Source: a plasmid. From it: 64,000 nucleotides of DNA. The position numbers are program-made. Within the stretch, counting starts at the first letter, position 1; each line of letters starts with the position of its first letter. The stretch lies in assembly GCF_057098645.1 (NCBI RefSeq), contig NZ_JBXSPU010000002.1; one strand, 5' to 3'. Positions 39,901-48,228 of this stretch are shown one piece after another.

Positions 39901-42900
39901 GAATATGGCCCAGCCTTTCCAGCAATCGTCGATTGTTATACCAGTCCACCCACGTGAGTGTGGCCAGTTCCACTTCTGCACGGTTTTTCCAGCTCTTACG
40001 GTGTATTACCTCCGCTTTGTAAAGACCATTGATGCTCTCCGCCATCGCGTTGTCATACGAGTCGCCAGTACTCCCTGTTGATGCCAGTAATCCGGCTTCC
40101 TTAAGCCGCTGCGTGTAGGCCAGCGATACATACTGAGAACCTTTATCACTGTGATGGATTGTGCCGGACGGCCGACGGGCCCACAACGCCTGCTCCAGTG
40201 CATCCAGCACGAATGTCGTTTCCATGGACGATGAGACCCGCCACCCCACGATGTATCCGGCAAACACATCAATGATGAACGCCACATAGACGAAGCCCCG
40301 CCATGTGCTGACGTAAGTAAAATCAGCCACCCACAGCTGGTCAGGTCGTTCTGCCACGAACTGACGGTTTACGCGGTCGCCTGCGGCAACGGCTTTCCGG
40401 CTGATGGTCGTACGGACCTTTTTACCCCGGAGAACACCGGCAAGTCCCATAACCGCCATGAGACGTGCCACAGTGCATCTGGCCACTCTGATACCTTCCC
40501 GTAACAACTGACGCCAGACTTTACGCACACCGTATACCTGGTGATTTTCATCGTATACGCGCTGTATCTCTTTCTTCAGCCAGTCATCGCGCTGAGCACG
40601 GGCACTGCGTTTATCAGGATGATGTCGCTGTTGCTGACAGTGGTAATACGTTGACGGGGCAATATGCAGTTCACTGCATACCGGTCCGACCCCGTACTGC
40701 TCACGCAGCTTATCCAGCAGCGGCATTATTTTTTCCAGAGGCGGTCGAACTCCGCCTTCGCAAAATAAGCGGAAGCCTGGCGAAGGATATCGTTACTGCG
40801 GCGCAGTTCACGATTTTCACGTTCCAGCTCTTTCAGACGCTGACGTTCAGCGGTGGTGAGTCCACCATCACCACTCCCGGTATCCCGCTCATGCTGGCGA
40901 ACCCAGACACGCAGAGTCTCCGGCGTACAGCCAATCTTTGGGGCAATGGAACAAATTGCCGCCCACTGTGAGTCATATTCATCCTGACTTTCCAGAACCA
41001 TACGAATCGCCCGCTGACGGACTTCGGGGGAAAAACGAGTATTTTTAGTCATCCTGTTTACCTCTTTCTCAGGGAGTTTAGTCTCCAGGATTTCCGGGGC
41101 GGTTCAGGTATCCTGAAATAGCCCGCTGCACGGAGCGGGAGTTTGCGACCATTCTTGCCGGTATCAGCGCCGGCGGCATGTACTGCCCGGAGTGTGGCAC
41201 GGTTCACTGGCCGGACGGAGTCCCCCCGCCCTTCTGATGCTTCCCCGTTTTGCCGACATTTTTCAGCAGGGAAACCGCTGGCTTAACTGGCTGGAGAAAC
41301 AACCGGAAGGTTCTGTGCGTCCGGTGGTCATTGAGTCGGTGACAAAAATCATGGCATGCGGAACCACGCTGATGGGGTACACACAGTGGTGCTGTTCATC
41401 TCCGGACTGTTGCCACACAAAAAAGGTCTGCTTCCGGTGTAAAAGTCGCTCCTGCCCGCACTGCGGAGTGAAGGCTGGCGCACAGTGGATACAGTATCTG
41501 CTGAGTCTGGTTCCCGACTGTCCGTGGCAGCATATTGTGTTCACACTTCCCTGCCAGTACTGGTCCCTGGTGTTCCACAACCGGTGGTTACTGGCAGAGA
41601 TGAGCCGCATTGCTGCGGATGTGATACAGGAAATCTGCCGCCAGGCAGATGTGGTGCCGGGGATATTCACGGTGATCCACACATGGGGACGTGACCAGCA
41701 GTGGCATCCGCACATTCACCTGTCGACAACGACCGGCGGCGTGACATCAGACCACACCTGGAAAAACCTTCATTTTTACGCCCGTAAGGTGATGAGTATG
41801 TGGCGTTACCGGATAACGCAGTTACTGTCACGGAAATATCCGGACCTGGTGATACCGGATGCGCTGGCAGCAGAAGGAAGCAGTAAACGGGACTGGAATC
41901 GCTTCCTGGACAGTCATTACCGGCGGGGCTGGAATGTCAACGTATCCCGGGTGATGGATAACGCCACACATGTGGCGGTGTACTTCGGCTCTTACCTGAA
42001 AAAACCGCCGGTGCCGATGAGCCGTCTGGAGCACTATGCTGGTCAGGATGAAATTGGTCTGCGTTACAACAGTCACCGGACAAAACGGGAAGAATACCTG
42101 GTGATGAGTGGTGATGAGTTTATGGAAAGGTTCTCCTGGCATGTGGCGGATAAGGGGGTTCCGTGGGAATTTCTGCGATAACACCCGCTAAGCGATTCCT
42201 CCCTGACGGAAATCACTTGTTTTCCGTCAGGTCCTGCAGTTGAAGAAAATTGAATCCATAAATCTGTGATTTTTTGCGTGACAAACCCTGTCGGAATGAG
42301 AAACTGTACGGAAACTTCAATTTTAAGGTTTGTCGTACATGTTGATTGGTTATATGCGGGTATCAAGCAATGATGAACGTCAGTCAGTTTCTTTGCAGCG
42401 TGATGCGTTGATTGCTGCTGGAGTGGATCCCCGGCATTTACATCAGGATCATGCTTCAGGTGCTCGTGATAATCGCCCGGGACTTAAGTCCTGTCTCGCT
42501 GAACTTCGCGAAGGTGATGTACTGATAGTCTGGAAACTGGATCGACTTGGTCGTTCACTCTCACATTTGCTCCGAATTATTGAAGACCTGAAAATTCGTG
42601 GTATTGCTTTCCGATCATTGACTGAATCTATTGATACAACAACGCCACACGGCTCGTTCCTCTTTAACCTTTTTGGCACGCTCGCGGAGTACGAAAGAAC
42701 ACTTATCACAGAACGCGTTAATGCTGGTCTGGCTGCTGCTCTCCGGCGGGGGAGAAAAGGCGGAAGGCCACCGGCGATAGATGCTGAAAAGGTTGATCAA
42801 ATCCTCGCAGCTCTGGAAGGAGGTGCCAGTAAAGCGTCAGTATGTCGCGCATTCAGTGTGCCACGCTCAACGCTCACCGATACTCTACGACGAATTGGCT

Positions 42901-45900: not shown

Positions 45901-48228
45901 TTTCCTTAGCGTGTGTTATCGCAGAAATGCCCACGGAACCCCTATGAGCGCAAAAGGTTGCTGCTACGATAATGCCTGCGTGGAAAGCTTCTTTCATTCG
46001 CTGAAAGTGGAATGTATCCATGGAGAACACTTTATCAGCCGGGAAATAATGCGGGCAACGGTATTTAATTATATCGAATGTGATTACAATCGGTGGCGGC
46101 GGCACAGTTGGTGTGGCGGCCTCAGTCCGGAACAATTTGAAAACAAGAACCTCGCTTAGGCCTGTGTCCATATTACGTGGGTAGGATCACAGAGGCAGTT
46201 CCAGTGTTAACATGAACCGCCGTATGCGGAGCCGCATGTACGGTGGTGTGATAGAACCACGGCAGCCTGGCGGCTGCAAATTGAAAACCGCCCCGGTTCG
46301 TCCTGTTGTTGCCGCACGCCCCGCAGAATATGTATGCTCTGAGGACCTGTTTTATTAAGGACTCATCCCCTTATGTTGACCCGCAAAAGTATCGATACAG
46401 TTCTGCTCTCTGTTGGTGCTGAGAAGCTCTCACAACGAGAATGGGACTGGATGAAAATGCTCAAACCCATGGACCCACCACCTGCGATGGTGACGACCTC
46501 CATCCTGAAGCGCCGTGGCGATACAGCAGCCCTTACCCTGCTACAGGATACCGGGGTTTAATCCATCCTCATGTTGTCCGGTTTTACTCCCCGCCCTCTG
46601 AAACGTCTGTTCACAGCCAACCAGTGCTGGACGTCCTTCCTGGATGCGGGCGGTCTGCGCGATATCGAGGTTGAAGCCGTCACCAAAATGCTGGCCTGCG
46701 GCACACGGATACTGGGTGTAAAAGAGTTCGGGTGTGATAACCCGGACTGTCAGCACGTAAAGTACCTGACCAACTCATGCGGCAGCCGTGCCTGCCCGTC
46801 CTGCGGAAAGAAGGCCACAGACCTGTGGACAGCAACACAGCTGAATCGTCTTCCTGACTGCGACTGGGTACATCTGGTCTTCACCCTGCCGGACACGCTG
46901 TGGCCGGTGTTCGAAAGCAACCGCTGGCTGCTGAATGACGTGTGCCGTCTGGCGGTGGAGAATCTGCTGTTAGCGCCAGTGATATAAGACGGTAATTCAC
47001 CATTTGGATTGTCCGCTCCACCCAACATGTTGTTTCCTTAAGGTTCTCACACCAAAAAGGACATCAACATGCTGAGCAGAGAGGACTTTTACATGATAAA
47101 GCAAATGCGCCAGCAGGGCGCGTACATTGTCGATATTGCGACTCAGATTGGTTGCTCTGAACGAACGGTCAGACGTTACCTCAAATACCCTGAACCGCCA
47201 GCCAGAAAAACCCGCCACAAAATGGTTAAGCTGAAACCGTTTATGGATTACATCGACATGCGCCTGGCAGAGAATGTCTGGAATAGCGAGGTTATCTTCG
47301 CGGAGATTAAGGCAATGGGCTATACGGGCGGACGTTCCATGCTGCGTTACTACATCCAGCCCAAACGTAAAATGCGTCCGTCAAAAAGAACAGTTCGCTT
47401 CGAAACTCAGCCCGGATACCAGCTCCAGCACGACTGGGGCGAAGTTGAGGTGGAAGTTGCCGGGCAACGGTGCAAAGTTAACTTTGCGGTTAATACGCTG
47501 GGGTTCTCCCGCCGCTTTCATGTCTTCGCTGCCCCAAAACAGGATGCTGAGCATACCTACGAATCACTGGTTCGCGCCTTCCGCTACTTCGGTGGTTGTG
47601 TGAAAACGGTGCTGGTTGATAACCAGAAGGCTGCGGTGCTGAAGAATAACAACGGGAAAGTCGTGTTCAACTCCGGATTCCTGTTGCTGGCTGACCACTA
47701 TAACTTCCTGCCACGGGCATGCCGTCCACGCAGGGCCAGAACAAAAGGTAAGGTTGAGCGGATGGTGAAATACCTCAAGGAGAACTTCTTCGTCCGGTAC
47801 CGCAGGTTCGACAGCTTCACTCATGTCAATCAACAACTGGAGCAATGGATAGCCGATGTGGCTGACAAACGGGAGCTTCGTCAGTTCAAAGAAACGCCGG
47901 AACAGCGCTTCGCGCTGGAGCAGGAACATCTGCAGCCGTTACCCGATACGGACTTCGATACCAGTTACTTCGACATCCGCCATGTGTCCTGGGACAGCTA
48001 TATCGAGGTTGGTGGTAATCGTTACAGCGTTCCCGAAGCGCTGTGTGGTCAGCCGGTATCGATACGAATATCGCTGGATGACGAGTTGCGGATCTACAGT
48101 AATGAGAAACTGGTGGCCTCACATCGCCTCTGTTCGGCATCGTCTGGCTGGCAGACAGTGCCGGAGCATCACGCCCCGCTCTGGCAGCAGGTCAGTCAGG
48201 TGGAACATCGGCCACTGAGTACCTATGA

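Follow-up and report, generated by a model that had tools for sequence, protein, structure and literature searches.

A passenger-free Tn3-family transposon with a predicted Tn5501-type res site on an Escherichia coli virulence plasmid

The region described here is, with a probability of roughly 90% as judged from its sequence, an intact, autonomous and passenger-free transposon of the Tn3 family. It is located within a 64-kb stretch of plasmid DNA, the whole of which is referred to as the window. The resolution module of the transposon, composed of the predicted res site and an invertase-like TnpR, is by homology of the Tn5501 type. The transposase, by its alignments, is of a different and unnamed lineage, with members in both Enterobacterales and Rhizobiales. 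That the element moves is clear from other strains, and the copy in the window marks a junction where the plasmid has been rearranged.

Structure and Gene Content of the Element

The features of the element and of its surroundings are collected in Table 1. The terminal inverted repeats agree at 36 of 38 positions (95% complementarity); the mismatches, at 14 and 31, are the two differences counted in the first-pass annotation. Their pattern, 38 bp with GGGG at the tip and CTAAG at the inner end, is that of the family, whose ends, of about 38 bp, run from GGGG on the outside to TAAG on the inside. The 30-nt core of the repeat occurs at only two sites of the window, namely the two terminal repeats, and at none in 100 shuffled sequences.

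Both genes are read from the + strand and overlap by 20 nt, and the tnpA stop codon (45907–45909) falls within the right repeat. The earlier description of a compact 3.8-kb element of this family, holding only co-directional tnpR and tnpA, agrees with the computed length of 3788 bp and with the matches to family profiles. It also stated that no passenger gene is present, and the four longest other internal ORFs, including an antisense one of 216 aa, gave no Pfam match. One figure has to be corrected: the interval from the left repeat to tnpR (42193–42338) measures 146 bp, not 135 bp.

Table 1. Features of the transposon and its flanks; coordinates refer to the window.
Feature	Coordinates	Strand	Description
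Left flank: IS91-family transposase gene, truncated at the border of the element	41192..42154	+	ORF continues to 42181 in IRL
Empty target site TATTA	40004..40008		Filled in pZ1323HEC0399-3
Tn3-family element	42155-45942		3788-bp unit between 38-bp inverted repeats; tnpR and tnpA only
Left terminal inverted repeat (IRL)	42155..42192	+	GGGGTTCCGTGGGAATTTCTGCGATAACACCCGCTAAG; inverted-repeat search; kept in relatives
Predicted res subsite I (crossover)	42202..42231		CCTGACGGAAATCA-CT-TGTTTTCCGTCAGG; two inverted 14-nt half-sites
Predicted res subsite II (accessory)	42263..42298		Limits by homology only
Predicted res subsite III (accessory, adjoins tnpR)	42307..42331		TACGGAAACTTCAATTTTAAGGTTT
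tnpR	42339..42962	+	207-aa small serine recombinase (resolvase); predicted nucleophile S9
tnpA	42943..45909	+	988-aa Tn3-family DDE transposase; triad D674, D747, E877
Right terminal inverted repeat (IRR)	45905..45942	-	Inverted-repeat search; tnpA stop codon inside
Right flank: 3′ remnant of IS3 orfB integrase gene	45943..46190	+	rve_2 and rve_3 matches

Parallels are found among the small Tn3-family transposons of enterobacteria that carry no resistance genes, such as Tn1722, Tn5396 and Tn5403. Tn1722 and Tn5396, which have been called cryptic (PMC5052281), differ from the present element in having additional genes, mcp in the first case and orf6 and orf7 in the second.

The Transposase

TnpA matches the Pfam family DDE_Tnp_Tn3 (PF01526, E 1.5e-134) together with DUF4158, and reaches 917 bits with the NCBIfam model transpos_Tn3 (NF033527), for which the cut-off is 500. 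It can be aligned end to end with the TnpA of Tn4430, whose structure has been solved (PDB 7qd8, E 1.6e-151). In this alignment, D674, D747 and E877 fall on D679, D751 and E881 of Tn4430, the positions of which were taken from the published paper and then verified in the alignment. A missing DDE triad had been raised earlier as an objection to the reading as a transposon, and all three residues are in place. Tn4430 of Bacillus thuringiensis has no known passenger genes (PMC7157771). The two elements differ in the resolution of cointegrates, for which Tn4430 employs the tyrosine recombinase TnpI at irs, whereas the present element has a serine resolvase and a predicted res site.

The best-scoring named transposases in the PLSDB plasmids were those of TnAs1, TnAs3 and ISPa38, which we take to be members of the Tn21 subgroup, and their identity to TnpA is 36–38%. 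The NCBI pipeline labels TnpA with the generic name of Tn3 family transposase, and gives the names TnAs1, TnAs3, ISPa38 and TnShfr1 to other elements. Relatives with approximately 70–90% TnpA identity keep the compact co-directional layout, and for many of them the assembled contig is about 3.8 kb long. The Tn21/Tn501/Tn1721 group, with the same 36–38% TnpA identity, shares the co-directional tnpR and tnpA, the position of res upstream of tnpR and the 38-bp repeats, but its members carry mer, an integron or other passengers. In Tn501, res lies upstream of tnpR with subsite III nearest to the gene (PMC7157771).

The relation to Tn5501 (Tn5501.3, pAKD4, GQ983559) is of a different kind. Its res-tnpR-tnpA order is the same and its genes are likewise co-directional, but its TnpA is only 25% identical, and the alignment is confined to the C-terminal half (residues 443–960). 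This value, lower than that for the Tn21-type transposases, places TnpA outside the Tn3000/IS3000 subgroup, to which Tn5501 has been assigned (PMC7157771). The TnpR proteins of the two elements, on the other hand, are 66% identical, and such a difference between the two genes indicates that modules of different ancestry have been combined.

The Resolvase and the Predicted res Site

The N-terminal residues 3–139 of TnpR match the Pfam family Resolvase (PF00239, E 6e-43) and residues 142–179 match HTH_7 (PF02796). The start of the protein, MLIGYMRVS9, aligns with MLIGYVRVS9 of Gin, and the closest solved structures are the Gin invertase (E 6e-50) and the gamma-delta resolvase (E 5e-26). By these matches, TnpR is to be classed as an invertase-like small serine recombinase. 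The invertase-like character of TnpR, the mixed ancestry of the modules and the missing target duplication described below had all gone without mention in the first-pass annotation.

The proposal that a candidate res site lies between the left repeat and tnpR is supported by the alignment with the predicted res site of Tn5501 and by the conservation of the site in relatives. The ungapped alignment to Tn5501.3 contains 77 matches in 141 positions, in comparison to a mean of 35 and a maximum of 59 for shuffled sequences; the Tn5501 site is itself a prediction (Table S2, PMC7157771). The matches are concentrated in the predicted subsites, with 25/31 for subsite I, 18/36 for subsite II and 19/25 for subsite III, whereas the spacer between subsites I and II agrees at the level of chance (7/31) but has exactly the same length. 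The spacing as a whole is that of Tn5501, with 62 nt from subsite I to II, 106 nt from I to III, and 32 nt from III to the ATG of tnpR. In Tn5501, a ParE/ParD toxin-antitoxin pair is placed beside subsite I, and the present element has none.

Subsite I consists of two 14-nt arms, 93% complementary and 2 nt apart, around the central dinucleotide at 42216–42217. A site of this type was found once in the window and never in shuffled sequences. The same res blocks are kept in nine relatives. These retain the half-sites of subsite I, with a central dinucleotide that varies (CT, AG, GA, GG, CA, TT), as well as the block GCGYGACAAACCCTGTCGGAATG of subsite II and an almost invariant GGTTTGTCG in subsite III. 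By eye, an inverted repeat of subsite III, TGTACGGAAAC...GTTTGTCGTACA, extends to 42339. The resolvase-binding repeats which were to be looked for in 42193–42338 were recovered in part: a scan with 12-mer half-sites detected the clear arms of subsite I and only one weak match, while the half-sites of subsites II and III are degenerate. Since the scan singled out subsite I only, the assignment of the other two is based on homology and conservation. The usual centre of a resolvase subsite I is AT or TA, but here it is CT. A simple scan of 42100–43000 for a sigma-70 consensus promoter found none.

The kinship of TnpR with invertases allows another interpretation, in which the protein would be a DNA invertase of the Gin/Hin type, flipping a segment of DNA rather than resolving cointegrates. 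Gin is indeed far nearer to TnpR than the gamma-delta and Tn3 resolvases (E about 1e-24 to 5e-26), and some sources label members of the TnpR cluster as 'DNA invertase Pin-like'. However, the only crossover-type site in 64 kb has no inverted partner, and behind it come two accessory blocks, both conserved, at the spacing of the Tn5501 res site. The gene is also part of a Tn3-family transposition module and its product is 66% identical to the TnpR of Tn5501, and invertase-like resolvases of transposons are on record. An example is ISXc5/TnXc5, whose resolvase is presented as a near relative of DNA invertases by the title of a paper cited in PMC7157771 (its reference 58). The invertase function is thus very improbable, and TnpR is most readily understood as a cointegrate resolvase. 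The likeness to ISXc5/TnXc5 is one of description, in that both resolvases have invertase kin, TnpR being nearer to Gin than to gamma-delta. TnXc5 differs in its divergent tnpR and tnpA, and in the half-sites of its predicted subsite I, GTTCAATAAAACGatCGTTTTTATGAAC.

Distribution and Mobility

The full 3788-bp query is covered in 63 plasmid records of PLSDB. Among 5426 complete E. coli genomes, 33 contain the element; at least 80% of the query is covered in 56 of their records, 54 of plasmids and 2 of chromosomes. Eight copies were compared base by base and differ from the window copy at no more than two bases. Within a single cell, as many as six replicons have an identical copy, nearly always as one full copy per replicon; strain Z1323HEC0422 has the element on six plasmids and UTME-12 on at least five. 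Five copies are flanked by perfect 5-bp target duplications (TTTGA, TATAA, TAAAA, AGATA and TATTA). In the case of TATTA, plasmid pZ1323HEC0399-3 carries an identical element, with TATTA on both sides, at a site which is empty in the window (Table 1). The recurrence of the nearly identical unit, its 5-bp duplications and the empty site indicate that it is autonomous, has moved recently and is not contained in a larger transposon. A search of the full-text literature yielded no published name for the element. A fragment on IncX1 plasmids was considered as a possible copy of the 256-bp MITESen1 element, an idea that was dropped, as the fragment has no inverted right end nearby and the second piece lies 1.39 kb away.

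The first-pass annotation had raised the concern that the unit might belong to a larger known transposon. Such a transposon would have its passenger genes outside the two repeats, and some relatives apparently do carry additional DNA left of res; in Tn5501, the toxin-antitoxin pair stands at the corresponding place. In a copy from Neorhizobium (L009), subsite I is present, and the 60 nt or so upstream of it contain no left repeat. However, more than 50 E. coli records end exactly at both repeats, with unrelated flanks beyond them, and the 5-bp duplications lie directly outside the repeats, so the larger unit can practically be dismissed. The Neorhizobium copy had also been considered broken at res, which was rejected once the alignment revealed subsite I, with only the left repeat missing.

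The copy in the window could, in turn, be regarded as a dead relic, as it has no target duplication, is bordered on both sides by broken insertion sequences and has no recognisable consensus promoter. Against this stand its intact ORFs, repeats and predicted res site, and its 100% identity over 3788 bp to freshly duplicated copies on other plasmids (L002, L003, L015), which together make an immobile remnant very unlikely.

The Flanks of the Window Copy

The flanks of the window copy are ATAAG on the left and TATGA on the right, hence no 5-bp target duplication is present. On the left, the interrupted IS91-family ORF (41192–42181) contains Y2_Tnp, covering profile positions 1–167 of 183. It is cut at 42154, reading ...HVADKG up to the junction and VPWEFLR followed by the stop codon inside the left repeat, whereas intact IS91-family copies continue with ...GFRMVRYYGFLS. 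It had been correctly noted before that the repeat supplies the last codons and the stop of this ORF. The 9–10 IS91 bases displaced at this junction are the same as the tip of the repeat of the element itself. None of the 5426 complete E. coli genomes searched contains the left junction. On the right, the IS3 remnant ends in what is presumably the IS3 terminal repeat, at 46160–46190, by the known end sequence. The right junction is common to pCAU16175_2, pKKo009_1 and two Z1323HEC plasmids (99.9–100% identity).

The lack of a target duplication, with a cut IS91 gene on one side and a cut IS3 gene on the other, suggests that the window copy marks a rearrangement junction, and the last movement of this copy cannot be read from its flanks. 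The hybrid flanks point to a second event at the element instead of a simple insertion. In this second event, two copies may have recombined, an intramolecular transposition may have deleted DNA, or a cointegrate may have formed and been left unresolved.

A more specific history would see in the window copy one junction of a cointegrate that stayed unresolved, or of two plasmids fused by recombination between their copies, as opposed to the remainder of a deletion inside a single plasmid. The left flank consists of a block with ehx, lpxM and cptA, an IS3-family element and IS91, and the right flank of the IS3 remnant, an autotransporter and a PerC block, and elsewhere these flanks are arranged differently or belong to different plasmids. 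Strain Z1323HEC0399 has them on pZ1323HEC0399-3 and pZ1323HEC0399-2, each of which carries the element. The right junction is common to four other plasmids and the left one is unique to the window, a pattern such as would be seen if a donor flank had been joined to a new target flank. On the other hand, the window holds no second element or repeat copy, and the rest of the replicon lies outside it. A cointegrate with intact tnpR and res should also be resolved quickly, and the same junction could arise from a deletion by intramolecular transposition or from res-by-res recombination of two copies in one plasmid. This history, by cointegrate or by fusion, is possible but, on balance, less likely than not. 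It would imply a reciprocal junction of the form some left flank-element-ATAAG-GGGTTCCGTATGG, the last part being the rest of IS91.

Proposed Mechanism of Transposition

The known behavior of the Tn3 family suggests a replicative transposition through a cointegrate. TnpA would bind the two 38-bp repeats, nick their 3′ ends and transfer these to an AT-rich target with a 5-bp stagger. As replication then proceeded across the element, the replicons of donor and target would become fused in a cointegrate with two direct copies. TnpR would then bind the three res subsites (42202–42331) of each copy and carry out the strand exchange in the middle of subsite I, predicted at about 42216–42217, thereby separating the replicons. 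Bound at subsites II and III, beside its own start codon, TnpR probably represses the tnpR-tnpA operon too. Target immunity, as in the family, may operate as well. For it and for replicative transposition, the occurrence of identical copies on several replicons of one cell, as a rule with one full copy on each, is an indirect hint.

Implications

The segment is accounted for by a standard Tn3-family transposon, and should be annotated as such, with the predicted res site included. It offers a natural example of module shuffling, in which res and TnpR are joined to a transposase of another lineage. Such shuffling has already been described for the family, and the current understanding is left unchanged by these results.

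A wider view, which is speculative and rather unlikely, would describe an unnamed minimal Tn3-family transposon now spreading in the plasmids of E. coli, often of pig origin. Wherever it inserts, it would provide a site for recombination, and virulence plasmids would be fused and reshuffled through it. The window copy would be one of the fusion junctions, and the transposase would perhaps be drawn to targets resembling the tip of its own repeat.

The element, which brings no cargo, sits at the breakpoint of two blocks of an enterohaemolysin-type virulence plasmid, and some strains have it on several plasmids simultaneously. Given this position and this multiplicity, it could plausibly be driving fusions, deletions and exchanges of plasmids. 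On the E. coli virulence plasmid, it thus matters mainly as a point of plasmid rearrangement.

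Organization of the element

The 3788-bp unit at window 42155-45942 has the Tn3-family features of a transposase with its catalytic triad, 38-bp GGGG...TAAG repeats and, at other copies, 5-bp duplications; it also encodes a serine recombinase, next to a predicted res-like site. The first-pass annotation described a compact element with terminal repeats differing at two positions, in which tnpR and tnpA are co-directional and no passenger gene is present. This is borne out by the match of the two arms at 36 of 38 positions and by the ORF layout, in which the four longest other ORFs gave no match in the Pfam search, leaving no evident passenger gene. 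The 30-nt core of the repeat does not recur in the 64-kb window and appeared in 0 of 100 shuffles. tnpR and tnpA share 20 nt, and the right repeat contains the stop codon of tnpA. The spacer between the left repeat and tnpR measures 146 bp rather than the 135 bp first reported.

TnpA scores 917 bits against NCBIfam transpos_Tn3 (cut-off 500) and can be aligned along its whole length with the transposase of Tn4430 (PDB 7qd8; E 1.6e-151). The catalytic triad of the latter is D679, D751 and E881 (PMC9579193), with which D674 (SSSDG), D747 (ATDTAG) and E877 (NKGES) of the element align; by this alignment TnpA keeps its DDE triad. The N-terminal motif of TnpR, MLIGYMRVS9, aligns with the corresponding motif of Gin, and by E value the protein lies much nearer to Gin invertase (6e-50) than to the resolvases of gamma-delta and Tn3 (5e-26 to 4e-24).

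Features of the element and of its neighbours in other records (window coordinates unless a locus, L, of another record is named)
Feature	Coordinates	Details
Left terminal repeat	42155-42192	38 nt, inverted-repeat arm
Right terminal repeat	45905-45942	38 nt, inverted-repeat arm
tnpR	42339-42962	207 aa; co-directional with tnpA; Pfam Resolvase E 6e-43 and HTH_7
tnpA	42943-45909	988 aa; co-directional with tnpR; Pfam DDE_Tnp_Tn3 E 1.5e-134 and DUF4158
Whole res region (predicted)	42201-42341	77/141 matches to Tn5501.3; shuffle mean 35, maximum 59
Subsite I (predicted)	42201-42231	25/31 matches to Tn5501.3
Spacer I to II	42232-42262	7/31 matches to Tn5501.3, chance level
Subsite II (predicted)	42263-42298	18/36 matches to Tn5501.3
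Subsite III (predicted)	42307-42331	19/25 matches to Tn5501.3
Toxin-antitoxin neighbour	L001 11135-11682	yacAB
Toxin-antitoxin neighbour	L014 (pKKo009_1) 3388-3947	RelE/RHH
Toxin-antitoxin neighbour	L016 (Rhizobium-type copy) 1-582	PIN/Phd
Toxin-antitoxin neighbour	L007 4096-4326	RelE/ParE

Distribution and movement

The unit is found at full query coverage in 63 PLSDB plasmid records. Among 5426 complete E. coli genomes, 33 have it at 80% coverage or more, in 56 records (54 plasmids and two chromosomes). Six plasmids of strain Z1323HEC0422 contain it, as do at least three in each of UTME-12, UTME-10, Res13-Lact-PEA12-26, SCU-106 and 23GD11002. Eight copies compared base by base with the window copy show 0-2 differences, and five copies are surrounded by perfect 5-bp duplications (TTTGA, TATAA, TAAAA, AGATA, TATTA). 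An example is pZ1323HEC0399-3 (locus L015, 2010-5797), where an identical 3788-bp element has TATTA on both sides; the same site is uninterrupted in the window (40004-40008, within an IS3-family element with ORFs at 39839-41052, minus strand), so that one target is seen in both its occupied and its empty state. Discrete recurrence of the block, its own duplications elsewhere and this pair of sites argue that the element is autonomous, recently active and no fragment of a larger transposon. The interpretation put forward by the first-pass annotation is supported.

On pDETEC45 (NZ_CP116070.1; L011 1501-1894) lies a 394-bp derivative with an internal deletion and 99.5% identity to the element. 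It keeps both terminal repeats, the right one with its tip changed to GGCG, as well as the whole res and the final ~170 bp of tnpA, and would represent a miniature non-autonomous form retaining the predicted res; its flanks, TATCA and GTTAT, form no duplication.

The predicted res site

The candidate res site proposed upstream of tnpR is supported by ungapped alignment to Tn5501.3, the reference copy on pAKD4, and by conservation in relatives. The Tn5501 subsites used as reference are themselves predictions (Table S2, PMC7157771). The spacings are the same in both elements: 62 nt from I to II, 106 nt from I to III, and 32 nt from III to the tnpR ATG. Predicted subsite I is a near-perfect palindrome, CCTGACGGAAATCA-CT-TGTTTTCCGTCAGG (42202-42231), with 14-nt arms and 2 nt between them, and no second palindrome of this type occurs elsewhere in the 64-kb window; the half-sites of predicted subsites II and III are only degenerate. 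A CT at the centre of subsite I is unusual for resolvases.

Nine relatives (from Enterobacter, Roseateles, Polymorphum, Rhizobium, Neorhizobium, metagenomes, an IncX1 remnant and Tn5501) were aligned with the element, and four blocks are conserved: the left repeat, the subsite I half-sites (CGGAAAWCA..TGWTTTCCG), the subsite II block GCGYGACAAACCCTGTCGGAATG, and the subsite III block, with GGTTTGTCG at its end adjoining the ATG. At the centre of subsite I the dinucleotide differs between relatives (CT, AG, GA, GG, CA, TT); a crossover dinucleotide unread by the protein would behave this way. The promoter scan upstream of and into tnpR (42100-43000) revealed no sigma-70 consensus promoter.

Variation of this region was seen in other records. 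Of two Rhizobium-type copies that share one TnpA protein sequence (L016 755-880 and L017 1-186), the former is missing ~60 bp within the res region, comprising subsite II and a portion of III, and is therefore probably defective in resolution. Remnants of a relative occur on the IncX1/IncX3-typed plasmid p39 (NZ_CP023379.1). The first (L012 5001-5208; 84.5% identical) consists of the left repeat, res and the first tnpR codons, with a shorter palindrome replacing subsite I; the second (6387-6470), 1.39 kb away in the same orientation, is a fragment of the right repeat with 96% identity across 84 bp. The two, which may be related to the IncX1 element MITESen1, flank a ParA-family gene, and the 208-bp fragment also occurs in other E. 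coli, Salmonella and Klebsiella plasmids of 35-177 kb.

Mixed ancestry

TnpR shares 66% identity with its Tn5501.3 counterpart, whereas TnpA reaches only 25%, in the C-terminal half alone. Named transposases of the plasmid collection share 34-38% identity with TnpA, among them TnAs1 (38.2%), TnShfr1 (36.4%), TnAs3 (36.2%) and ISPa38 (35.9%). Nearer relatives, bearing generic names only, come from Xenorhabdus, Salmonella, Serratia and Morganella (88-90%), Rhizobium, Ensifer and Brucella (77-79%) and Acetobacteraceae (62-63%). The compact tnpR-tnpA arrangement persists to ~70% TnpA identity; in a 63% relative the resolvase gene is divergent instead. By these identities, the element joins a Tn5501-type resolution module to a transposase from another lineage. 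Module exchange at res is already on record for the family (PMC7157771).

The gene order resembles that of Tn21/Tn501, the resolution module that of Tn5501, and the lack of passenger genes that of Tn4430. Tn5501-type transposons contain a toxin-antitoxin pair adjoining res subsite I; in four of the contexts examined, such a gene or pair lies 3-320 bp outside an end of the element, which may be accidental or may mean that regions of plasmid maintenance are preferred. Full-text literature searches turned up no published name, and only generic names are used in the examined genome records, which are mostly from RefSeq. The element can be regarded as a new, or at least an unnamed, member of the Tn3 family.

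Junctions and history of the window copy

The IS91-family ORF (41192-42181) is interrupted at 42154. As first annotated, the left repeat supplies its end, which amounts to nine codons and the stop; intact copies read on as ...GFRMVRYYGFLS... instead. No target duplication is present at the window copy (flanks ATAAG and TATGA). Its right junction (right repeat, TATGA, IS3 orfB remnant) is common to pCAU16175_2, pKKo009_1 and two Z1323HEC plasmids at 99.9-100%, and the left flanks of the two such plasmids examined, TTTTA and TGTAA, are unlike the window's. A search of the 5426 complete E. coli genomes found no instance of the IS91 left junction, and the 9-kb region around the element is covered by no PLSDB record. 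Such hybrid flanks, one old and one new, can arise by recombination between two copies, via res or homology, by intramolecular replicative transposition deleting the intervening DNA, or from an unresolved cointegrate; the 64-kb window holds no second copy of the element.

In intact IS91 copies (...ATAAGGGGTTCCGTATGG...) the displaced junction bases, GGGTTCCGT, are the same as bases 2-10 of the left repeat (window 42146-42167), and their alignments extend 10 bases into it with one gap, an extra G. Coincidence is unlikely, at ~4e-6 per position for nine adjacent matches. One possible origin is insertion beside a target resembling the repeat tip; in old work, Tn3 reportedly preferred sites next to such sequences. 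Another is deletion at the short shared sequence, together with one extra G.

Window 42100-42119 holds GGTGATGAGT twice in tandem, and pKKo009_1 (L014 ~2495-2505) only once. Other IS91 copies match this stretch at 99.6-99.8%, with the extra G at the junction as the single 1-base length difference; since they agree with the window, the IS91 transposase gene of pKKo009_1 has probably suffered a 10-bp frameshifting deletion.

The source of the window is an enterohaemolysin-type E. coli virulence plasmid. Matching records for the sequence to the left of the element contain ehxA, ehxB, ehxD and cptA, and in some cases katP; those for the right side encode an autotransporter and a PerC-family regulator and include IS66-family elements. 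A second, diverged IS91-family copy (~62450-62870, minus strand; 89% identical) spans the cut point of the first, and a second IS3-like copy lies at ~50078-50323 (minus strand; 93% identical). Both could be substrates for further rearrangement.
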